DNA of 20,000 nucleotides from an uncultured virus (IMG/VR IMGVR_UViG_3300001528_000358) (lineage: Duplodnaviria > Heunggongvirae > Uroviricota > Caudoviricetes): IMG/VR virus record IMGVR_UViG_3300001528_000358; one strand, written 5' to 3'. The position numbers and the translations under genes are program-made. Below the pieces are notes generated by a model. The model searched no databases, was not told where the DNA came from, and worked only from the letters and a program-made list of their open reading frames with translations. Below are positions 7,254 to 19,959 of this stretch, in pieces (positions within the stretch are counted from its first letter, which is position 1; the number at the start of each line of letters is the position of its first letter).

Positions 7254-7868
7254 TTATTTTAATAATTCTGAGAATCTTGTAACAAAGACTTCCATCTCAT
7301 CCACTGTCATAAGTGGCATATCGTAATCAGGGTCATCCCCATTTTCATAATCAATCTCGTCATTATAAATACCTGATCGATATAAATAATAGAGTTGTTT
7401 GTATGCTAAGAAGTCCATCATTCTTCGAATTTTACTATTAAAGAATGATGGATTGGCAACCATCATTTCTGGCGCACAAAAATCGGATTCCCCAAACAGT
7501 ACACCAGTATCTTCGATTGCGTCAGAAACAAACTGATATTCTGACATGGTCATCAATACATTTGCTTTTACCGTTTTCTGATTCTTTTCATATTTATGAA
7601 TTACAGTAAGTAATTCGTAATACTCTAACACGGTACTACGATTACGATTAGCAAAGATTCGATATTCTTCTTTACTCACTTTTGAACTGCATTCGTAAAA
7701 GCGTTTCATATCTCTTGTATTACGAAACTCTTTTGCCATCTTTTTATCATTTGTAACAGCATATAAGACATACTTGTCTTCGACATGAACTTTCTTATTA
7801 TGCTTTTCAATATAATCGGTTTCTTCTTCTGTTGGTATCCTATAAAATCTGTAGCAGTGCATTTTCAT
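7254..7868 (-). CDS. hypothetical protein, paralogue family member 4 (204 aa)
   Basis: Start moved to ATG 7868 (MKMHCYRFY; GAGGGGG RBS); contains the family motif LYAVTNDKKMAKEFRNTR. Confidence 0.85.
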   Translation of the reverse strand: MKMHCYRFYRIPTEEETDYIEKHNKKVHVEDKYVLYAVTNDKKMAKEFRNTRDMKRFYECSSKVSKEEYRIFANRNRSTVLEYYELLTVIHKYEKNQKTVKANVLMTMSEYQFVSDAIEDTGVLFGESDFCAPEMMVANPSFFNSKIRRMMDFLAYKQLYYLYRSGIYNDEIDYENGDDPDYDMPLMTVDEMEVFVTRFSELLK

Positions 7869-8445
7869 ATACCCCCTCTTTTGTGTAAGTATTCCCAAAA
7901 AGATACATATATACTTCCAATTCATTGATTGTAAAATAATTCTCATAATCATCATCAATTGGCATAGTATATATGACCTCAAATTGTTTTATTATCGTTT
8001 CTTTGAGTATGTGATGAATATATGGTTTAAATATTTTTTTAGAATTTTCTAAATACTCATCACTTAATACAGATAGCTCTTCTAGGATATAATCATATCC
8101 ATGATAACTAACCGTCTCATATTCTATCACTGTTGAAAGTAGTGGATATTGGTATGGTTTTATTTTTTTATCACTAACACTCGTACCAGTAAAATAATGA
8201 CAACTTAAAGCTTGGTCTGGGTGTTGATCCAGAAATTTCTCATATTTGTTCTTTGACATTTTTACTTCTTTCGTATAGAAGATATCTTTTTTTCTAGTAC
8301 GTTTGAAAAGATTTGCATCTTTTTTAGAATTTGTATATGCATATAATGCATATACCAATCCTTCATCTTCATTTACGGTATCTGGTAAGACAGCGTAATA
8401 GTCACTCATCTCACGGTCACAAATGTAAAACAGATACACTTTCAA
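7840..8445 (-). CDS. hypothetical protein, paralogue family member 3 (201 aa)
   Basis: TTG start with AAGGGGGTGA RBS; motif LYAYTNSKKDANLFKRTR. Confidence 0.85.
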   Translation of the reverse strand: MKVYLFYICDREMSDYYAVLPDTVNEDEGLVYALYAYTNSKKDANLFKRTRKKDIFYTKEVKMSKNKYEKFLDQHPDQALSCHYFTGTSVSDKKIKPYQYPLLSTVIEYETVSYHGYDYILEELSVLSDEYLENSKKIFKPYIHHILKETIIKQFEVIYTMPIDDDYENYFTINELEVYMYLFGNTYTKEGVYENALLQIL

Positions 8446-8463
8446 TTTCTCACCCCCTTTAAA

Positions 8464-9114
8464 TTAAAATGCAAAATGATAATTTTTAAGGAATATCGTT
8501 AATCTATCGTCTACTAGGTTTAACAATTTATGTCCTTCTAATGTCAAACCAAACGATGCTTGATAATCAGCATATTCTGTTCTGTCATCTATTTCATCAT
8601 CATCGTCAAATTTAGTGGAAATACCACATTGATCATATAGGGACGAATAACCCAGTATTTCTAAACACTCTCTATATTTTTCTTTGAAAAAATGATAATC
8701 GTAAGAAGTAGTTTCATAAAATTCATCATAAAACATTGCTTCTCCTTCAAACATCACCTCTTTATTTTCATGGAAAACAGATAAGATATGCTTTTCTGCT
8801 TCGTGTTTATTTTCAGTATCTTCACCTAGTTTTAATTCATCATAGAATGAATAGTACCCAATTTGATACTCTTTATTATATACACAAAACTTAGTATACA
8901 AATCTTCATCAATTTCATGTTTAATGACAATATACTTGTCTTTATTACGTACTTTAAAAAATTCTTTTAACAAAGATTTCTTTTCTGTCCATGCATAAAG
9001 ACCAGTATAATAATCACCTTTTTCTCTATAATCTTTTAAATTCGGTAAAAGATCTCTTACACGTTTTGTGAAATCTTTTACCGGTATTTTTATATATAAC
9101 ATGTATATCTTCAT
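8464..9114 (-). CDS. hypothetical protein, paralogue family member 2 (216 aa)
   Basis: ATG 9114 (MKIYMLY) is properly spaced from AAAGGA; motif LYAWTEKKSLLKEFFKVR. Confidence 0.85.
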   Translation of the reverse strand: MKIYMLYIKIPVKDFTKRVRDLLPNLKDYREKGDYYTGLYAWTEKKSLLKEFFKVRNKDKYIVIKHEIDEDLYTKFCVYNKEYQIGYYSFYDELKLGEDTENKHEAEKHILSVFHENKEVMFEGEAMFYDEFYETTSYDYHFFKEKYRECLEILGYSSLYDQCGISTKFDDDDEIDDRTEYADYQASFGLTLEGHKLLNLVDDRLTIFLKNYHFAF

Positions 9115-9119
9115 TATAC

Positions 9120-9653
9120 TCATCCTTTCATTAAATCTGAATACATGTTTAAAAAAGCGGATAAATAATCCGGTTCAAATTCTGAAGCAATATCTTCGAA
9201 GTAATCCAAATCAAAGTCTAAACAAAGATATCTATAAGCATTATAGTACCCTAGACGTACAAACATGTGTTTATATTTCTCTTTAAAAAGCATAGGATCA
9301 TAACTCACGCTTGTCCACATCTTTGACATAATCACATCCGTGCAAACATTCACTACGTTAAGTTTCTCTTCCTTTGTTGCCATAATAGAAAATTGATCTA
9401 TGTACTTCTCACTCTCTACTCTTGTTTTTCCTTCAAATGGAATAAGAAAAGAAGAATTGTATTCTTCGGTCAATTGGTGAATTTCTTTCTTTGTAAGTTT
9501 CTTCATCATAATAAGAAACTTATCCATGTTTCTTTCTTCTTTAAATTGCTTCATATATTTTTTATTATCAGTATAAGCATATAATTCATAAGCAATATCT
9601 ATATCTGTAGATTTAATATAGATGAGCCAATACTTATACTTCTGCTCTATCAT
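9120..9653 (-). CDS. hypothetical protein, paralogue family member 1 (177 aa)
   Basis: GGAG RBS; motif LYAYTDNKKYMKQFKEER. Confidence 0.85.
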   Translation of the reverse strand: MIEQKYKYWLIYIKSTDIDIAYELYAYTDNKKYMKQFKEERNMDKFLIMMKKLTKKEIHQLTEEYNSSFLIPFEGKTRVESEKYIDQFSIMATKEEKLNVVNVCTDVIMSKMWTSVSYDPMLFKEKYKHMFVRLGYYNAYRYLCLDFDLDYFEDIASEFEPDYLSAFLNMYSDLMKG

Positions 9654-9941: not shown

Positions 9942-10103
9942 ATGGAAAATTTAGGATGTAAGAATAATTATTCTGATAACGAAATTGAAAGATATTTTGG
10001 AGAATCAGAAGAAGCTATGGAGACATGTAATTCCTGTCCTTATCTTAATTACAAAAATGGACTCGTCACTTGCACAAAACCAAAGGAGGATCATACAAAA
10101 TGA
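9942..10103 (+). CDS. small Cys4 putative metal-binding protein (53 aa)
   Basis: Below the ORF-track cutoff. GAAAGGA RBS; MENLGCKNNYSDNEIERYFGESEEAMETCNSCPYLNYKNGLVTCTKPKEDHTK; its stop overlaps the next start (ATGA at 10100-10103). Confidence 0.75.
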   Translation: MENLGCKNNYSDNEIERYFGESEEAMETCNSCPYLNYKNGLVTCTKPKEDHTK

Positions 10104-11308
10104 TACTACAAAGAATAGATTTTTCAAACATGGATTTCTTAGTTAATACTGTATGTGCAGGTAGAACAAGCAAAGACCATAGAAAAGATTTGGGTCCTCA
10201 TATTAATAATATTTACAATCATGTGGAAGTTAAATTCTTATTAAGAGATGTAGATATTGTTACGGCGTATTACTTAAAAAAATTTTCACATGATAATATC
10301 ATCTTTATAGATTCTAATTTATCGGATGAATTGGTAAAAAAAGAATATAAAGATCTTTATAACAATACACATGTAGCAATGAAATTAGTAGAAGCTATTA
10401 GTAAAGATAGCGATGTTGGTAAAAAAGATTACTCTGAGTTATTCCCAGCAATTTGTATTAAAAAATCATTACATGTTACATTTACTGGTTCTTCTTTAGG
10501 ATTTTTATTTGGACCAAATCCAGATATAACTTTAAAAGAGTTATATTCCTTTAAAGAAGATAAAGACTTTAATTCAGATGTAATTAGAGAAAATAATTAT
10601 GAAGTATTAAAAAATTACTTATTTAATACTTTACTTCAATCTACTTATAAATTCATTGATAGAGAAAATCATACAATGGATTTATTAGCGGATTCAACGA
10701 TTAATCTTTATTACTATAATATAGACTATTTAGAAAGTTATCCATGTTGGTTAATGGAAACAAATTCTGTATTAGGAAGAAAGTCTTATTGCAGAAAAGA
10801 AACAGAACACGAAGACAGAGTAATGATTTCTAATTATGATAAAGTCTCTTTATTAAAAAATGTGAAATTAACATTTTCTGTCAAAGCACCTTATTATGCA
10901 TTCTTAGAAATGTTTATTGCATTACCATCACATTTCTTTTTAGATAGTGAGGATATTCGTTCTGTTGCAGCAAAAGAAGACTATAATGGAAACCATATGG
11001 TCTTAGATGACAAATACAAAATCCGTTTATCAGACTATTTTGTAAAGATGGCAGCTTCTTCAAAAGAATTGATTACTAACGAAAAAGCTTTAGATAAATA
11101 TTTCTATTTACCATTATCATCGAATATTCATTTTACAATGAATATTTCATTATATGATATTGCAAATGAAATAGAGACATATGAAACAAAGATTAAATGT
11201 CAAGGTTTATATGGAGATACCATTAATTACTTACCATCTCATATTTTAGATATTATCTTTTATATGAAGAGTTTTGCAACTATGGTTTATAAAGATTATT
11301 TTAATTAA
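10100..11308 (+). CDS. hypothetical protein (402 aa), degenerate tandem ThyX-like fold lacking the RHR catalytic motif
   Basis: Start ATG 10100 (AAGGAGG RBS). Two repeats of ThyX-like scaffold motifs: NHVEVKFLLRDV...ELFPAICIKKSLHVTFTGSSL and KNVKLTFSVKAPYYAF...YFYLPLSSNIHFTMNISLYDI. The CDS is secure, the fold call is tentative. Confidence 0.45.
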   Translation: MILQRIDFSNMDFLVNTVCAGRTSKDHRKDLGPHINNIYNHVEVKFLLRDVDIVTAYYLKKFSHDNIIFIDSNLSDELVKKEYKDLYNNTHVAMKLVEAISKDSDVGKKDYSELFPAICIKKSLHVTFTGSSLGFLFGPNPDITLKELYSFKEDKDFNSDVIRENNYEVLKNYLFNTLLQSTYKFIDRENHTMDLLADSTINLYYYNIDYLESYPCWLMETNSVLGRKSYCRKETEHEDRVMISNYDKVSLLKNVKLTFSVKAPYYAFLEMFIALPSHFFLDSEDIRSVAAKEDYNGNHMVLDDKYKIRLSDYFVKMAASSKELITNEKALDKYFYLPLSSNIHFTMNISLYDIANEIETYETKIKCQGLYGDTINYLPSHILDIIFYMKSFATMVYKDYFN

Positions 11309-11314
11309 ATAGAG

Positions 11315-11357
11315 AAAATGTAGATAGTAGAAAAACCATCTCTACTATCTACATTTT
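11315..11357. terminator. bidirectional intrinsic terminator
   Basis: 17-bp inverted repeat AAAATGTAGATAGTAGA / TCTACTATCTACATTTT just after the stop at 11308. Confidence 0.8.
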
Positions 11358-11435
11358 TAACAACTGTCAAAAGGAGAATACTATGAAAATACAAGAATAT
11401 CTTCAGTATTATATTTTATAAAAATATACTTCCTT
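11315..11435 (-). ncRNA. candidate small RNA 1 (contains anti-Shine-Dalgarno CUCCUUUU)
   Basis: AACA-taagtt-TA at 11435-11446 (-) points into an ORF-free stretch ending at the 11315-11357 terminator. Confidence 0.35.
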
Positions 11436-11450
11436 AAACTTATGTTAGGT

Positions 11451-11485
11451 AAAAAAATATCTACTAGATTCGAAAACCTAGTAGA
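11451..11485 (-). terminator. minus-strand intrinsic terminator with UUCG tetraloop
   Basis: On (-): UCUACUAGGUU-UUCG-AAUCUAGUAGA followed by UAUUUUUUU. The G-U pair, UUCG loop and U-tract work only on the minus strand. Confidence 0.75.
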
Positions 11486-11636
11486 CTAAAAATAATAAGT
11501 AAGATTTTACAGCATCAATAAAAAATAAACTCAACTTTATCTCACACAAGATGAAAAATCACATTTTACACATAACAGAAACGAAGTACTATGCTCTTAC
11601 TTATTTCTTTTTTATACTCTTGTATATAATAATTTT
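11451..11636 (-). ncRNA. candidate structured small RNA 2
   Basis: No ORF. An 11-bp long-range stem 11494-11504 / 11595-11605 (AATAAGTAAGA / TCTTACTTATT) closes the body. Ends in the UUCG terminator. 5' end uncertain (one-mismatch early motif at 11637-11648). Confidence 0.4.
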
Positions 11637-11675
11637 AAATATTATATAGAACACTAAATATTTTCAATAGACGAT

Positions 11676-11706
11676 AAAAAAAATGAATTGAGACAATCTC
11701 AATTCA
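11676..11706 (-). terminator. minus-strand intrinsic terminator
   Basis: TGAATTGAGA-caa-TCTCAATTCA preceded by A8 on +, i.e. a U8 tail on the minus strand only. Confidence 0.7.
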
Positions 11707-11770
11707 AAAAATTAAAAATGTGTAAATATATATAAATAATATTATTATATATATTATAATTATTATAAGT

Positions 11771-11830
11771 GATTGTTAATTATTGTTATTTATGATTTTT
11801 TATTGTTTTCTATTGTTAGTGATTGTTATT
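11771..11830. repeat. six 10-bp phased direct repeats (five with an ATTGTT core) next to a 46-bp pure A/T tract
   Basis: gattgttaat tattgttatt tatgattttt tattgttttc tattgttagt gattgttatt; 11723-11768 contains no G or C; C7 run at 11844-11850. Confidence 0.75.
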
Positions 11831-11873
11831 AATCTCTTAGGGTCCCCCCCTATAATACCTAACCATTCTATAT

Positions 11874-11885
11874 TACTAATATGTT
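11874..11885 (-). promoter_or_regulatory. putative late promoter AACA-N6-TA reading into the repeat/AT-rich tract
   Basis: AACA-tattag-TA on (-); a second match AACA-atcact-TA lies at 11766-11777. Confidence 0.4.
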
Positions 11886-11927: not shown

Positions 11928-11941
11928 TTATATATTATTTT
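11928..11941 (+). promoter_or_regulatory. putative phage early promoter TTATATATTATTTT
   Basis: Third copy of the 14-mer, upstream of the 12004-13890 operon and followed by a short GAAGTT/AACTTC 5' hairpin. Confidence 0.7.
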
Positions 11942-12003
11942 TGCGAAGTTGATCGACCAATAACTTCAGACAAAATACACAAAAGAAAGAAGGTGTTCTC
12001 CCT

Positions 12004-12435
12004 ATGGGAAAGAAAAAAAAGAAGAAAGAAAAAGAGTCTATTTCTATATTAAATGAAATAGATAATTCTCTTAACGAATCTTATACGGATTTAATGCAAG
12101 AGATCCAAGATTATCAAATGGAGATTTATATTGCAGATAAAAAGTATAGAGAAAAGTTAGAGAAGAAGCTGAAAAAAGACCCGTATTATTTTGATACGGG
12201 TGGAAAATCCAAAGCACGAAAGAAAACTCTAAAGAAGATGGAATCTAATAATTTCTTCGATAGAGTTGAGAAAGCTTTAAAAGATTTATCTCCGATTATT
12301 GTTATTATCGGAAGATTAATCTGCAGCTTGATATTATCAATATTATCTATTGATACAGTTAAGACATCGATATCTAAAGGTACATTAGATAAAATGTCTA
12401 CTGTTTATCAGCTGGCGTATTCGATTGGTCGATAA
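12004..12435 (+). CDS. hypothetical protein (143 aa) with one hydrophobic helix, possibly membrane-associated
   Basis: AAGGTG RBS; poly-Lys N-terminus; LSPIIVIIGRLICSLILSILSI segment. Confidence 0.8.
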   Translation: MGKKKKKKEKESISILNEIDNSLNESYTDLMQEIQDYQMEIYIADKKYREKLEKKLKKDPYYFDTGGKSKARKKTLKKMESNNFFDRVEKALKDLSPIIVIIGRLICSLILSILSIDTVKTSISKGTLDKMSTVYQLAYSIGR

Positions 12436-12911: not shown

Positions 12912-13817
12912 ATGAAAAATATGTATCTTGATGAAATTAAATTAAATGAAATCTTATCCAATGGTATTCCTGTAATGTCATACAATGAACTTAGTGAATA
13001 TCAGAGACTCTCTATTGAGAGAAGAGTAAATCCATTATTTGATCGAAAGAAATTTGATCAGTTAGACCATTATGCTAAACATGAAAATCATAAAGGTTTT
13101 AAAACCAATTTCATTAAGTCGTTGAATGTTAATGATGATTATTATGGTTTTATTCGTGAAGGATTTGATTATGCTATCATATATTCTCAAACACCATTTG
13201 AGGATAAATTATATCGTGATGGTAAAGAAAGTTGTACTCACAGAACAACAAAAGAAGAAAGGGTTATTTATCCCAAAGCAAAATACAAATTTTTCTTGTC
13301 GATGAATAATTTTGAAACTTGTATGAGAAAACTGACTTCTGACAATCCAATCCCACTGTCTATGAAAGACGGAATTGAGAGTATGACGTATATCACTTTG
13401 ATGGTAAAAAATTCTGTGGGAATTGTCCTTCATTCAAGATATCACGATTTACATATCGTACATAGATTTGACAAATATGTAGAGTTTAAGTTCACTGAAA
13501 AAGAACTTCTCTATTTATTTGAGAAATCTTATACTGAGCCAAAGGATATACCTTTGGTGATTGGTGAGAAAATTGCCGAAGCATATCATAGAATAAAAAA
13601 TGATAGTGTATTCGACAAATTATTCGATCCCGATAAGAGTATTTTCAATCCATATACTAAGATGACGAAAGGTGGTGAAAAACATGGTTCCAAAAACAAG
13701 AAAAAGAAGAATAAGAAAGCTCCGAAGAAAACTCGGAAAACTTCTGTACAAAAAAATGAAAATCATGGCAGAAAGTCAGAGTCCAAAATCAAAAAAGGAG
13801 ACAAAGAAGTTAAATAG
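12912..13817 (+). CDS. hypothetical protein (301 aa) with Lys-rich C-terminal tail
   Basis: AAAGGAG RBS, long ORF. Confidence 0.85.
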   Translation: MKNMYLDEIKLNEILSNGIPVMSYNELSEYQRLSIERRVNPLFDRKKFDQLDHYAKHENHKGFKTNFIKSLNVNDDYYGFIREGFDYAIIYSQTPFEDKLYRDGKESCTHRTTKEERVIYPKAKYKFFLSMNNFETCMRKLTSDNPIPLSMKDGIESMTYITLMVKNSVGIVLHSRYHDLHIVHRFDKYVEFKFTEKELLYLFEKSYTEPKDIPLVIGEKIAEAYHRIKNDSVFDKLFDPDKSIFNPYTKMTKGGEKHGSKNKKKKNKKAPKKTRKTSVQKNENHGRKSESKIKKGDKEVK

Positions 13818-15798: not shown

Positions 15799-15831
15799 AT
15801 ATATTAGAATATGAAAGGAGGATGTAAACTC

Positions 15832-17133
15832 ATGTATTACTTAGATGAGTTATTCACCGAATCGTATTTCGGTAAGACCAAAAATCTTCAAATGGCTGAG
15901 CGTATTCTCGGACAAATGTTAGAGGTTATGCGGGAAAAGCCACATGGAGATTTTTCAAATCATCCATTGAATAAAGAATTAGAAAAAACTTTTCAAAGAC
16001 AGTTTGGGTTTAAACGCATTTACATTATTTGGGACAGAGCACCCCTCACATCTTTTAGAGCATTTACATTAAGCTCTTCGGATGTTTTATTTGACCCAAA
16101 ATATTATGCAGTAAAAAATAAAGAAAAAGGTTTCTATGATGAAAGTCATAGCCACATTGCATATATTCGTATTTCTGTAGAAATACCTCTGCAGTTAAAT
16201 TTTACACCAGAAGAATTACTCGGTACCATCTTGCACGAGCTTGGTCATAATTTTGATGATAGTTTGTATACAAGATTATCTGTTGGTGCTACCTATTTGT
16301 ACAATGTTGTGGGTATCATAAATGGACTATTCTTAGAAAATCCGGAATTAATTGGACAATATGCTGGTCAATTTGCAGGTTTATTGATATCGACTACAAA
16401 CACAGGTCATTTGGTTAATGCAAAATTAAATCATCTGTGTAATAAATTTTTAAACCATGTTCCAGCATTGAAAAAAATGAAGCTGGTTCTCAATAAAGTT
16501 TGTGATGTTATTTTTGCGGGATTGGATGTACTTAATAGTGCTGCCGGTTTGGTTATGTTGCCGTTAAATTTGTTATTATCCCCAGTTACACAAATGATGA
16601 CATTACTAACACGTAAAGGAGAAGAATTTGCGGATTCTTTCGCAGCTTCTTATGGATATGGTGCAGGTGTTATTTCTGGTCTTTCTAAAATGAGTGCAGC
16701 ACCATGGATGAAAGATAATAAAAAAAATATGGATTACGCGAATCCAGTATATAAAATTGCTACAGATATCTCTATGTTTCAACATGAAATCATGGCATTT
16801 GCAAATGGTGACCATGGAACAGAACTTACAAGAGCCGTTAGTATTAAACAGGAATTAATTCGTGATTTAAAGAATGCCGATTATCCACCAGCATTAAAAA
16901 GAGATATTCTTAATTCCATTAAGGAGTTAGATAATCTTCATAAAGAAATTATTGAATGTCAGGGAAATGATACAAACTTTGTTCTTACAGCATTTGCACG
17001 TCAATCACTGGATACGATTTTTAATGGACGTTCCGACTTTATTGCGAAACTCTTCCCTGCTAATACAGTAAGAACTGTTATGGGTGAAAGTACTGATGAT
17101 ATCGAATTGGATTTCGAAGGTATTTTATATTAG
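15832..17133 (+). CDS. zincin metalloprotease (M48/M56-like, HExxH), probably virion-associated (433 aa)
   Basis: ILHELGH (16234-16248), third-ligand region EEFADSFAASYGYG...LSKM and DHGTELTR (THP..R-like). Start ATG 15832 behind AAAGGAGG. Confidence 0.8.
   Translation: MYYLDELFTESYFGKTKNLQMAERILGQMLEVMREKPHGDFSNHPLNKELEKTFQRQFGFKRIYIIWDRAPLTSFRAFTLSSSDVLFDPKYYAVKNKEKGFYDESHSHIAYIRISVEIPLQLNFTPEELLGTILHELGHNFDDSLYTRLSVGATYLYNVVGIINGLFLENPELIGQYAGQFAGLLISTTNTGHLVNAKLNHLCNKFLNHVPALKKMKLVLNKVCDVIFAGLDVLNSAAGLVMLPLNLLLSPVTQMMTLLTRKGEEFADSFAASYGYGAGVISGLSKMSAAPWMKDNKKNMDYANPVYKIATDISMFQHEIMAFANGDHGTELTRAVSIKQELIRDLKNADYPPALKRDILNSIKELDNLHKEIIECQGNDTNFVLTAFARQSLDTIFNGRSDFIAKLFPANTVRTVMGESTDDIELDFEGILY
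16623..16660 (+). repeat. 38-nt exact repeat, copy 1 (copy 2 at 18807-18844)
   Basis: AGAATTTGCGGATTCTTTCGCAGCTTCTTATGGATATG is identical in both protease paralogues. Confidence 0.9.
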
Positions 17134-17151: not shown

Positions 17152-19959
17152 ATGATTATTTTTCCAGAAGATTTCAGTAAGATTACTGATCTTGAAGATG
17201 TTTTAACAACAATGATCGAATCTTCTAAAGAAGAATATATCAAACCTCGTGAAGTTCCTTCAGAATATGTAGAAAAATTTATGCATACAAAAGTAGATGA
17301 TATTTTTGAAAATGTGGAATATAGTTCTGCTATCCGACCATATGTTATGGAATCGGAATATTGTGAAGATATTAAAACACATATCGAAACAGATTATCTG
17401 ATGGAAGCAATTAGTGAGGATAGATATAAACGATTATTAAGAGATTTTAATTCTCTTATGATGGAAGCAATGAGTGAAGAAAACGTATCACTTGGTGCAA
17501 TGCTTCCACAACCAGGACAAGGAAAAAATCCTTATACAGAAGAAGAGGATGATGACGACGAATTAGAAATTGAAGAAGCTGTTATTGATTATATCAATAA
17601 CCCTACATATGAGTATACTGTTTATGTAGAGGGAGCCATTAAAAATATGGTAACAAAAGTAAAAGATACTGTAGGATCTAAGATTTCTATCAATAGTCAG
17701 TTATTAAAAGAAGTTGGTAAAAAGGTTGCTTTAAAGGCAAAGATTCGTATTGCGAAAATTAAAAAAGCCGACCCAAATAAATTAAATGACTTAAAGAACG
17801 AGTTAGTACAGGTGGAAGAAAATATCCGTAATTTAAAAAAGGGATTAACACCAGAAACTTTACAAGAGCTCGAAGAAGCAACCGCAAAAATGGAGCAAGC
17901 AATTAAAAAGAAAGAAGACGCTTCTGACGATAATATCAGTGCGGATGAATTGGTAAAAGGTGTTCTTGATATGGAAAACGAAACCAAAGACCAGCAAAAT
18001 ACCAACGAATCTGTTATGGTAGTAAAAGAGGCATACTTTGGCAAATCTTCTACTTTAGAACAAGCCGAAAGTATTATCGGAGAAATTATGAGAGTGATTC
18101 GGTTAAATCCATCTGGGGATTATACCAATCATCCATTAAATAAAAAATTAGAGATGTTGTTTGAAAAACAGTTTGGACTGAAGAATATGTATATTATTTG
18201 GGATAGAACCCCAATTAGTAAACCATCTGAGTTTTCTTTATGTTCCTCTGATATCTTATTTAATTCTCATTACATTATCCAGAAAGATAAGAGAAATGGT
18301 TTTTATGATAAAAACCATGTACATGTTGCATATATTCGTTTGTCTGTAAATTTAATTACATCAATTAATTTCACACCAGAAGAAATTATGGCATTGATGC
18401 TGCATAACCTTGGAACAAACTTTGATGGTTCAGTTTATAGTAGATTTAAAATTCTCTTAGGATATGTGAATGCTATTTTCGGTGCATTATATAGTTTGAT
18501 GGTTGGTACCATGCTTGGTGATGCGATGTTGGCGGTAAAACCAATTATTGCAGAAATTATTTCTATTATGATGATTTCTACAAATCCAGGTCATAAACTT
18601 CTTGCGAAGTTAAATCAGCTTTTAGAGAAGCTGATTGATAAAGTGCCAGTTTTAAAGAAGATTAGTTTAGTTTTTGGAAAGGTTGAGAATGTATTATATA
18701 AAATTGGTGAAATCGGCTTAGATGTATATAAGCTTTTCCGCATTCCATTCTATCTTATCTCTGCACCAATTAGTCAGTTATTCTCTTTATTTGGAAGAAA
18801 AGAATTAGAATTTGCGGATTCTTTCGCAGCTTCTTATGGATATGCTGCCGCAATGGCATCTGTAATTAATAAAGCAGAAGCATCTAATTGGATCAAAGAT
18901 ATGGAAGCTTTCCCTACGGAAACGAACGGCTTCTATCAACTGACCACAGATATTGCTCTCTTTATGAGAGAAGTAATAAATATCACATTAAAAGGTGGTT
19001 CCTCAGGTTCTCGTATCGTAAAGATTAAGGAAGACCTTGTATACAATATCAAAGGTGGAGACTATCCAAAAGAGTTAAAGAAAGACCTGTTGAAATCTAT
19101 TGATGATGTTGAAAGTGTGTACAGAAACTATACCAACTGTGATAGAAATGATAGTGGCTTAGTTGCAACTGCATTTGTCCGTAATGGTGTTGATGAATTA
19201 TTTGACGGTAGGACTGATTTAATTAATCAATTATTCCCAGACAATACAGTACGAAGTGCATTTGGTGAATCTGTCGATTGCGAGTATTTAGATCGTTTAT
19301 ATGATGATTATCAGGAAGCGAAATTCTTATTAGAAAAAGCAGAAAATGATAATAAACAGTCATTGATTCGTAGATATGAAAACCAAATTAAGTATTACGA
19401 AAAAACGATTGCTACGGAAGAAGCAATTTTAACAGAGAAAGCAAATATCGACAAAGATATGAAACCAATCATTGAAACATTAAACCGTAAAGGATATAAA
19501 ACTAAATATTCTTCTGCAGGACATACGCAGCTTAGAAAAAAAGAAGATAAATATCGTGATGGTATTTATGAAGGTAAATTATATTCCGATGCTCGTATTA
19601 TGTTTGATGGAGATTATAACTTCCCGAAAGCTCCTAAATATTGGATTTGGAGAACCGTTGATGAGAAAGATTATCTTGACGTAGATCCAAAAGCATATAG
19701 TATTGATAAAGGAGATAGTCCAGAAGATGCATTCAGAAAATGGAAAGCGGCTTATATGGGTACATTAAAAACATGGGTAGAAAATCTCCCAGAACGTGAA
19801 GAAACTTCTGGTAAAGCAGAAGCAAAAGATACAAAGGGAAGAAAAGTTGCATTAGAAAATACAGAAGAAGAAATGAACTTTGAAGATTTCTTCACTGAGA
19901 TGATGCATGATATTGATAATGAACTTATAGAAGAAGGATATGATTCATTATTGGTATAA
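17152..19959 (+). CDS. 935-aa multidomain probable virion protein: acidic leader, coiled-coil region, inactive zincin paralogue, C-terminal TYW3-like motif domain
   Basis: AAAGGGGTGA RBS. About 18028-19272 aligns end to end with the upstream protease but has HNLGT in place of HELGH. The C-terminal region contains IDKDMKPIIETLNRKGYKTKYSSAGH. Confidence 0.75.
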   Translation: MIIFPEDFSKITDLEDVLTTMIESSKEEYIKPREVPSEYVEKFMHTKVDDIFENVEYSSAIRPYVMESEYCEDIKTHIETDYLMEAISEDRYKRLLRDFNSLMMEAMSEENVSLGAMLPQPGQGKNPYTEEEDDDDELEIEEAVIDYINNPTYEYTVYVEGAIKNMVTKVKDTVGSKISINSQLLKEVGKKVALKAKIRIAKIKKADPNKLNDLKNELVQVEENIRNLKKGLTPETLQELEEATAKMEQAIKKKEDASDDNISADELVKGVLDMENETKDQQNTNESVMVVKEAYFGKSSTLEQAESIIGEIMRVIRLNPSGDYTNHPLNKKLEMLFEKQFGLKNMYIIWDRTPISKPSEFSLCSSDILFNSHYIIQKDKRNGFYDKNHVHVAYIRLSVNLITSINFTPEEIMALMLHNLGTNFDGSVYSRFKILLGYVNAIFGALYSLMVGTMLGDAMLAVKPIIAEIISIMMISTNPGHKLLAKLNQLLEKLIDKVPVLKKISLVFGKVENVLYKIGEIGLDVYKLFRIPFYLISAPISQLFSLFGRKELEFADSFAASYGYAAAMASVINKAEASNWIKDMEAFPTETNGFYQLTTDIALFMREVINITLKGGSSGSRIVKIKEDLVYNIKGGDYPKELKKDLLKSIDDVESVYRNYTNCDRNDSGLVATAFVRNGVDELFDGRTDLINQLFPDNTVRSAFGESVDCEYLDRLYDDYQEAKFLLEKAENDNKQSLIRRYENQIKYYEKTIATEEAILTEKANIDKDMKPIIETLNRKGYKTKYSSAGHTQLRKKEDKYRDGIYEGKLYSDARIMFDGDYNFPKAPKYWIWRTVDEKDYLDVDPKAYSIDKGDSPEDAFRKWKAAYMGTLKTWVENLPEREETSGKAEAKDTKGRKVALENTEEEMNFEDFFTEMMHDIDNELIEEGYDSLLV

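Follow-up and report, generated by a model that had tools for sequence, protein, structure and literature searches.

A two-copy A-rich element, a candidate transcription-primed replication origin, beside two probable small-RNA genes in an AR9-like jumbo phage

The largest intergenic gap of a 77-kb viral contig contains, in its right-hand third, an element of ~190 bases (unit 1) that joins a late promoter motif to a run of G and an A-rich tract and that occurs as two near-identical copies in each of two complete genomes of related phages. We place about even confidence in the reading that unit 1 is likely a transcription-primed origin of replication and that its two neighbors (units 2 and 3) are probably genes for small RNAs. 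The window referred to throughout is the whole stretch of 20,000 nucleotides that was analyzed, which is the last 20 kb of the contig.

Genomic setting

Judged by its sequence, the window belongs to an AR9-like jumbo phage. Tubulin-like and gyrase-like genes were recognized by eye among the ORFs of the contig, and the closest named phages are Bacillus phage AR9 and Goe21, with 24% identity for a 440-aa protein. AR9 (Takahashivirus PBS1) shares with the window phage its late motif, given as AACA-(6N)-TA/G in the cited passages of PMC5312081, and an AT-rich early box with a G at +1; it differs in having no detectable orthologue of the 143-aa gene to the right of the gap and no element of the unit 1 type. 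A near relative with a complete genome of 254 kb (G001) encodes split RNA polymerase subunits, a divergent DnaB-like helicase, a tubulin/FtsZ protein, an NAD ligase and a Dda-like helicase, as found by scanning 140 of its 159 ORFs of at least 200 aa.

The gap measures 695 nt and separates a gene of 402–412 aa from one of 143 aa, both on the plus strand. As a lead only, the left-hand protein may be a divergent ThyX-fold protein: a Thy1 annotation is found on 24–40% of the members of its cluster, and ThyX entries head the results of a search with its predicted fold, at E ~0.006 and TM 0.19. For either of the proteins beside the gap, a search with the predicted fold returned nothing at E ≤ 0.001. 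G001 also encodes a ThyA. The 143-aa gene has 119 homologues, and 11 loci with an orthologue were collected for comparison of the gap; further profile searches (baseplate alignment, 400-aa alignment, genome contigs) gave no additional loci. One of these loci (L030:4200-4520, minus strand) has a 57-codon gene, led by a Shine-Dalgarno (SD) site and followed by its own terminator, inserted in the equivalent gap, which indicates that the site accepts extra small units.

Elsewhere in the window, four tandem minus-strand ORFs of 177–242 aa (7254-9653) have a common LYAYT/LYAWT motif, and this paralogous array adjoins a strand switch and is kept in relatives. Two adjacent phrog_2767 paralogues (15811-17133 and 17152-19959) resemble the AR9 "zincin protease."

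The gap and its borders contain the following features.

10100..11308, plus: left flanking gene, ~402 aa, possibly a divergent ThyX-fold protein
11305..11435, minus: unit 3, probable small RNA ending at hairpin 3, with CAU and UCUCCUUU (11370-11377)
11315..11357, either strand: hairpin 3, bidirectional terminator-like, its inverted repeat perfect and bordered by T runs at either end
11370..11421, plus: SD site and 12-codon mini-ORF opposite unit 3, the ORF not conserved
11435..11446, minus: AR9-type late motif of unit 3, predicted start 11435
11451..11612, minus: unit 2, probable small RNA of ~160 nt, a closing stem followed by a terminator
11459..11486, minus: hairpin 2, terminator-like, with UUCG loop, G-U pairs and U-tract, identical in G001
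11618..11628, minus: putative early-type box preferred for unit 2, +1 A at 11612, overlapping the box at 11637-11648
11684..11706, minus: hairpin 1, terminator-like with U-tract, kept in G001 with a changed loop
11716..11909, minus: unit 1, two-copy element and candidate transcription-primed origin, the block common to both G001 copies
11723..11768, no strand: A/T-only run of 46 nt, candidate unwinding element, the longest in the 77-kb contig
11772..11826, minus: A-rich tract in which ACAAT occurs five times, phased at 10 bp
11844..11850, minus: G7 run close to where the predicted transcript begins, G5–G7 in all full copies
11874..11885, minus: late promoter motif AACA-N6-TA of unit 1, predicted start 11874
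11929..11945, plus: early promoter box of the 143-aa gene, with G at +1, placed back-to-back with the promoter of unit 1
12004..12435, plus: right flanking gene, 143 aa, all-helical, of a family of unknown function

Hairpins and promoter motifs

An earlier note had described the gap as an ORF-free island of three head-to-tail minus-strand units, each ending in a hairpin and each with its own promoter motif. We find the three hairpins at 11315-11357, 11459-11486 and 11684-11706, and their spacing, put at about 145 and 225 nt, measures 144 and 225 nt. The latter two have U-tracts solely on the minus side, as the note had said of two hairpins, and the UUCG loop that it saw in one of them is present at 11459-11486, together with G-U pairs that form on the minus strand alone. 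Hairpin 3 shows one compensatory change in G001, from G-C to A-U. Across the window there are 24 terminator-like sites, compared with 6.1 ± 3.1 in shuffled sequence. No minus-strand ORF in the gap has an SD site; the plus strand carries an SD-led mini-ORF of 12 codons (11383-11421). The note had overlooked this mini-ORF, as well as the G7 run, the phased repeats and the second copy of unit 1. ARAGORN found no tRNA or tmRNA, in keeping with the statement that none of the units resembles a tRNA.

The promoter motifs at 11435-11446 and 11874-11885 are exact AACA-N6-TA matches to the AR9 late motif, whereas the third one proposed, at 11637-11648, is an early-type box that lacks the +1 G, as does its G001 orthologue; the overlapping box at 11618-11628 fits better. 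Late motifs occur at 0.65–0.73 per kb per strand overall; at ~0.7 per kb per strand single matches mean little, and positional conservation is what counts. L001, L002, L003, L030 and L077 carry both motifs at the corresponding positions. In gaps between tandem genes, sense late motifs number 46 in G003 (23.1 ± 4.1 shuffled; 13 antisense) and 36 in G004 (22.8 ± 4.8 shuffled); the motif is weakly enriched in such gaps of G001 (25 versus 16.0 ± 4.2 shuffled) and shows no enrichment in the small set from G000 (5 versus 4.3). For early promoters, a G stands at +1 of 10 of 12 TATATATTAT and all 5 TATATAATAT intergenic boxes in G001.

Because late motifs arise at this frequency by chance, the gap might be decayed, mostly neutral DNA that holds terminators and accidental promoter motifs, and units 2 and 3 are 91% identical to G001 where the median of 14 other gaps is 89%. 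At fourfold sites, however, identity is just 67% over the whole genome (2059 of 3068) and 51% in the neighboring gene, the motifs keep their places in different lineages, and unit 1 exists as a homogenized pair. We consider neutrality very improbable.

The cluster of three units is not conserved as such. Rfam, which the note had named as a check, returned five sub-threshold matches, the best at E 0.044 to a miRNA hairpin, and 0 matches on seven related loci. The reading as three minus-strand noncoding RNAs is supported for units 2 and 3; unit 1 is unlike a structured small RNA.

Unit 1 recurs among relatives

The limits of unit 1 were set by blastn and a three-way alignment with the two G001 copies. 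The combination of late motif, G5–G6 run and A/purine-rich tract on the minus strand is present at 6 of the 11 loci (L001, L002, L003, L030, L035 and L077; 45–95% protein identity), L035 being the same as L002 in the gap. Two others (L031 and L032) have a 340-nt tract of 73% A with no late motif and no 5′ G-run, L081 has just the G-run in the gap, and in 2 of the 11 syntenic loci (L033 and L082) the element is absent from the gap. G004 has one divergent A-rich tract with no late motif or 5′ G-run. The longest A/T-only runs of the G001 genome, 52 and 49 nt, are those at its two copies.

A count of late motifs followed by G≥5 within 40 nt gave 2 of 364 in G001, 2 of 365 in G003 and 1 of 101 in G000, every one of them the element; G006 has 2 of 279, one of which is the element, and G004 has 2 of 354, neither of which is. 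AR9 has six among 412, none followed by noncoding DNA, and no counterpart of unit 1 was found among those 412 motifs.

Two contigs show related observations. The end of L034 (L034:1-30) falls within the G-run of the element, a break that would be expected if the assembler stopped at a two-copy repeat. On the minus strand of L081 (2750-2900), upstream of a cell-wall-enzyme-like gene, AACA-N7-TA is followed by GGGGAGGG, able to pair with CCCTCCCC ~70 nt downstream; this is possibly a different, folded element.

A second copy and concerted evolution

A search for G-runs located a second copy (B) in both complete genomes that carry the full element. In G001 it lies at 71808-71987, 136 kb from copy A in direct orientation and 94% identical to it; in G003 it lies at 63342-63537, 158 kb away, inverted and 86% identical. 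A collection-wide pattern scan returned seven stretches, all of them A or B copies, one being a B copy in a third contig. Both B copies come immediately after a short baseplate-wedge gene, orthologous between the two genomes (53% aa identity), and lie within 2 kb of a Dda-like helicase gene, a shared context which implies that the element was duplicated before G001 and G003 separated. The baseplate gene by which the B region is recognized is missing from G000 and G006, both of them incomplete; G006 has no ligase or Dda gene either. The baseplate-wedge homologue is itself short, ~132 aa (L040:1575-1973, L041:1101-1493) against 730–850 aa in AR9 and staphylococcal jumbo phages.

Despite this older duplication, the paralogues are closer to one another than the orthologues are. 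Diagnostic columns in the alignment of the window with G001 copies A and B comprise 22 that are paralogue-shared, 7 that are orthologue-shared and 5 of the remaining kind, and the corresponding numbers for copy A of G002 with G003 copies A and B are 17, 11 and 4. This pattern indicates concerted evolution, and the alignments thus describe copies that are homogenized within each genome. A role for unit 1 in recombination or inversion was considered and rejected, as the genes on either side of copy A, like the one upstream of copy B, have stayed in place.

Other repeats in these genomes are of different kinds. A dispersed repeat of 50–100 bp has a G8–G10 run that immediately precedes an early-type box, TATATACCAT-N6-G, with sites at 10506 (+), 43098 (−) and 45491 (+) in the G000 contig and at 45233, 59121, 111428, 254405 and others in G001, where a +1 G is present at 9 of 11 intergenic sites; it is probably a family of strong early promoters. 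G004 has a ~90-bp dispersed noncoding repeat, internally symmetric by inversion, whose very numerous copies lie in both orientations at dozens of sites (e.g. 102980, 130580 and 209061; L048:2290-2380). G003 has a family of ~230 bp with at least seven dispersed copies, 82–97% alike, including sites at 13315, 14315, 91319, 103329, 131605, 132333 and 133557.

Duplex stability, fold and genome position

The copies are usually the weakest duplex and the DNA most prone to RNA:DNA hybrids in their genomes. Among 100-bp duplexes, the two copies rank first and second in G001, and the element ranks first in G000, G004, G005 and at G003 copy A and second in G002. At G003 copy A the weakest duplex lies upstream of the promoter, copy B of that genome ranks 43rd, and in G006 the weakest duplex lies ~170 nt downstream, beyond the tract. 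Hybrid-minus-duplex energy for the transcribed strand falls in the top 0–0.5% of windows at 8 of 9 sites (2.2% in G006), compared with percentiles of 86–99.9 for the opposite strand. The weakest-duplex sites of AR9 were examined as equivalents of unit 1 and rejected; they are promoter regions in front of genes.

Unit 1 has no conserved predicted fold. Of 48 pairs predicted in the window, 21 are the same in G001, 1 has changed on one side, 13 are broken and 13 are gapped, with part of this loss (26 of 48) falling within the realigned terminator. The folding energy of the body is −1.6 kcal/mol in G006 and −0.1 kcal/mol in G004. Indels of 1, 3 and 11 nt argue against an encoded peptide.

Five of six sites lie at percentiles 85–99 for divergent gene orientation at every window size: 93–99 for G001 copy A, 94–99 and 90–95 for G003 copies A and B, 85–98 for G004 and 89–99 for G006. 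G001 copy B is at a strand switch just locally, at percentile 99 in 10-kb windows and 58–72 at 20–40 kb. The positions of the A copies are shared by descent and are therefore not independent. Residual nucleotide skew at fourfold sites revealed no consistent switch at the copies and no consistent origin or terminus, and thus lends an origin at unit 1 no support.

These data also bear on whether unit 1 acts as RNA. The two copies could be genes for an unstructured, A-rich RNA that acts in trans by sponging or scaffolding a protein that binds A-tracts, in which case the gap would hold three small-RNA genes, as the earlier note had proposed. A stretch of 110–200 nt runs from the promoter to what in most copies is a terminator-like hairpin; the RNA would be 48–60% A in full elements; homogenization is also known for duplicated RNA genes; and the adjoining units 2 and 3 resemble RNA genes. 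Yet neither sequence nor fold is conserved between lineages, the copies are genome extremes of duplex melting and hybrid stability, which are properties of DNA, and they lie far apart near strand switches. We regard an A-rich RNA gene as unlikely.

Unit 1 could instead be a DNA site with another job, in tubulin-system segregation or tethering, packaging or recombination, at which a phage protein would bind or bend the phased ACAAT repeats and A-tracts. The five ACAAT at 10-bp phase and a phage-encoded protein of the tubulin/FtsZ family would fit such a site, and two dispersed copies evolving in concert suit any protein-bound cis site. The repeats, however, are not retained in G003, G005 and G006, which keep the promoter motif, G-run and strand polarity, and with the genes beside both copies in place nothing indicates recombination. 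A site of this kind seems to us distinctly improbable.

Unit 1 as a candidate replication origin

If unit 1 is an origin, transcription by the phage non-virion RNA polymerase would begin at 11874, in the AACA-N6-TA motif, and the untranslated, purine-rich RNA with its 5′ G-run would stay hybridized to the pyrimidine-rich template as an R-loop, holding the adjacent A/T-only stretch open. The 5′ G-run and purine skew are features that favor RNA:DNA hybrid formation. The 3′ end of the RNA would then prime the phage DNA polymerase, and the DnaB-like helicase would load onto the strand that the RNA displaces. Unprimed transcripts would end at the hairpins downstream, which would also insulate unit 1, and the late-type promoter would tie origin firing to the appearance of the phage-made polymerase. 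The intrinsic terminator counts against an origin, as it releases the RNA, unlike what a primer needs.

Searches for DnaG_N, Toprim_2 and Prim-Pol gave no match in all five genomes examined, with controls matching in 10, 14 and 3 of 14, although such searches may miss divergent enzymes and the host primase could serve instead. RNase H was found in 2 of the 5 genomes and not in G001. Two 2026 preprints (PMC13648698, PMC13648687) state the same primase gap in the passages cited, describing Chimalliviruses as having no identified primase, and one speculates about RNA–DNA hybrids and R-loop initiation. The cited portion of PMC13282480 names no replication origin.

The closest parallel is with phage T4. 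According to the cited passages of PMC3016281, oriF and oriG each combine a phage promoter with an A+T-rich unwinding element of ~100 bp that lies downstream of it, and form a sequence-independent R-loop that is used as a primer, and three T4 origins lie near transcription strand switches. Unit 1 resembles oriF (uvsY) and oriG, as there described, in spanning ~100–200 bp with a phage promoter followed by an easily unwound A+T-rich stretch, and its phages would likewise have several origins per genome; five of the six sites lie near leading gene-strand switches, with residual skew inconsistent. A promoter motif stands immediately upstream in the window, L001, L002, L003, L030 and L077; an A+T-rich element lies downstream in G000 and at both G001 copies, an arrangement that is not uniform across lineages, since in G003 the weakest stretch lies upstream. 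Relative to the T4 origins in that account, the unit 1 promoter is of the AR9 late type, for a phage-encoded multisubunit polymerase, rather than a MotA middle promoter; a 5′ G-run and strong purine skew are added; the copies in one genome are almost the same, unlike the T4 origins, which have little sequence in common; and no primase was found. On the features compared, we propose by analogy that unit 1 would work like a T4 origin.

The G-run has its own parallels. In the ColE1 RNA II preprimer and at mitochondrial CSB II origins, a G-run in the transcript nucleates the RNA:DNA hybrid, as that of unit 1 would do. Unit 1 differs in having no conserved folded preprimer, its pairs not being kept and the G004 and G006 bodies being nearly unstructured, and no known equivalent of the antisense RNA I, and in being far shorter and AT-rich.

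Units 2 and 3 as probable small RNAs

Unit 2, found in the window and G001 alone, is on sequence evidence a probable lineage-specific small RNA. Its 17-bp closing stem pairs 11595-11611 with 11488-11504, and the box at 11618-11628 is preferred as its promoter because the +1 at 11612 falls exactly where this stem starts. The minimum free energy is −37.1 kcal/mol for the minus strand versus −23.1 kcal/mol for the plus strand. In a comparison of two sequences only, 44 of 50 pairs are the same in G001, 3 have one-sided changes, 0 are compensatory and 3 are broken. The one-sided changes are G-U/A-U exchanges, with pairing retained on the minus strand alone. The RNA may bind a protein or act by base-pairing, roles that two sequences do not separate. 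A hydrophobic 32-codon plus-strand frame over unit 2 was rejected; it has no SD site, and indels in G001 shift the frame. Beside copy B in G001, at ~71470-71720 (L040), we observe a second unit that has the layout of unit 2, with a TTATATACA box, a long closing stem and a terminator, in unrelated sequence.

Unit 3 keeps its layout in 6 of 6 genomes, which represent four lineages at 45–50% protein identity: a late motif, 24–59 nt, then UCUCCUUU with CAU just upstream, and a terminator hairpin. It is probably a small RNA, acting as an anti-SD repressor or a cis antisense insulator. Read on the plus strand, the anti-SD and CAU become an SD site and AUG that open ORFs of 1, 1, 9, 12, 35 or 60 codons, which vary in length and have unrelated sequences and hence encode no conserved peptide. 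A type I toxin–antitoxin system finds no support, as no conserved small toxic peptide ORF lies opposite unit 3 in the six genomes. The best trans duplexes have energies between −25 and −36 kcal/mol, where the means are −15 to −20, with the genes differing by lineage, and no target among translation starts within the six phage genomes is shared. A pattern scan that returned seven loci recovered three known relatives and four unrelated chance matches (L110 and L112–L114), which were dropped.

What is conserved may instead be the plus-strand SD/AUG, as the relic of a gene slot or a leader, with the minus-strand promoter making an antisense RNA that damps read-through to unit 1. L082 has an SD-led 8-codon ORF and no late motif, and L033 holds a real 105-aa gene in the unit 3 slot, so an SD slot can exist without the promoter; the absence of a shared trans target points the same way. 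Set against this are the variable length of the mini-ORF (1–60 codons) and the presence of a late motif 24–59 nt from the anti-SD in every one of the six genomes. We hold this reading as a real, if tentative, possibility. Returning to unit 3 as a small RNA, C/U-rich anti-SD small RNAs occur in Firmicutes, RoxS/RsaE being an example. Unit 3 is like them in bearing UCUCCUUU, complementary to strong SD sites; unlike them, it has no sequence or Rfam match to known members, carries an additional anti-AUG and has no shared phage target that we could find.

Implications for AR9-related jumbo phages

A blastn search against 50,697 phage records gave nothing above threshold, and searches of the openly readable literature turned up no description of the unit 1 element or of an AR9/PBS1 origin. 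In its most specific form, the proposal would be that unit 1 is the origin of a primase-less AR9/phiKZ-related phage, at which the late polymerase makes a dedicated G-run/A-rich primer RNA from two homogenized sites on opposite sides of the genome, and that the unit 3 RNA blocks ribosome loading on many mRNAs; we find this combination doubtful. Unit 3 is a candidate phage RNA complementary to translation starts (e.g. AAAGGAGA starts). The late motif, 5′ G-run and purine-skewed AT-rich tract together provide a search signature for other genomes. Short, sharply bounded, present in two copies and equipped with a promoter of known type, unit 1 is a substrate for transcription, R-loop and priming assays, and it bears on how jumbo phages related to phiKZ and AR9 begin DNA replication without a recognizable primase.
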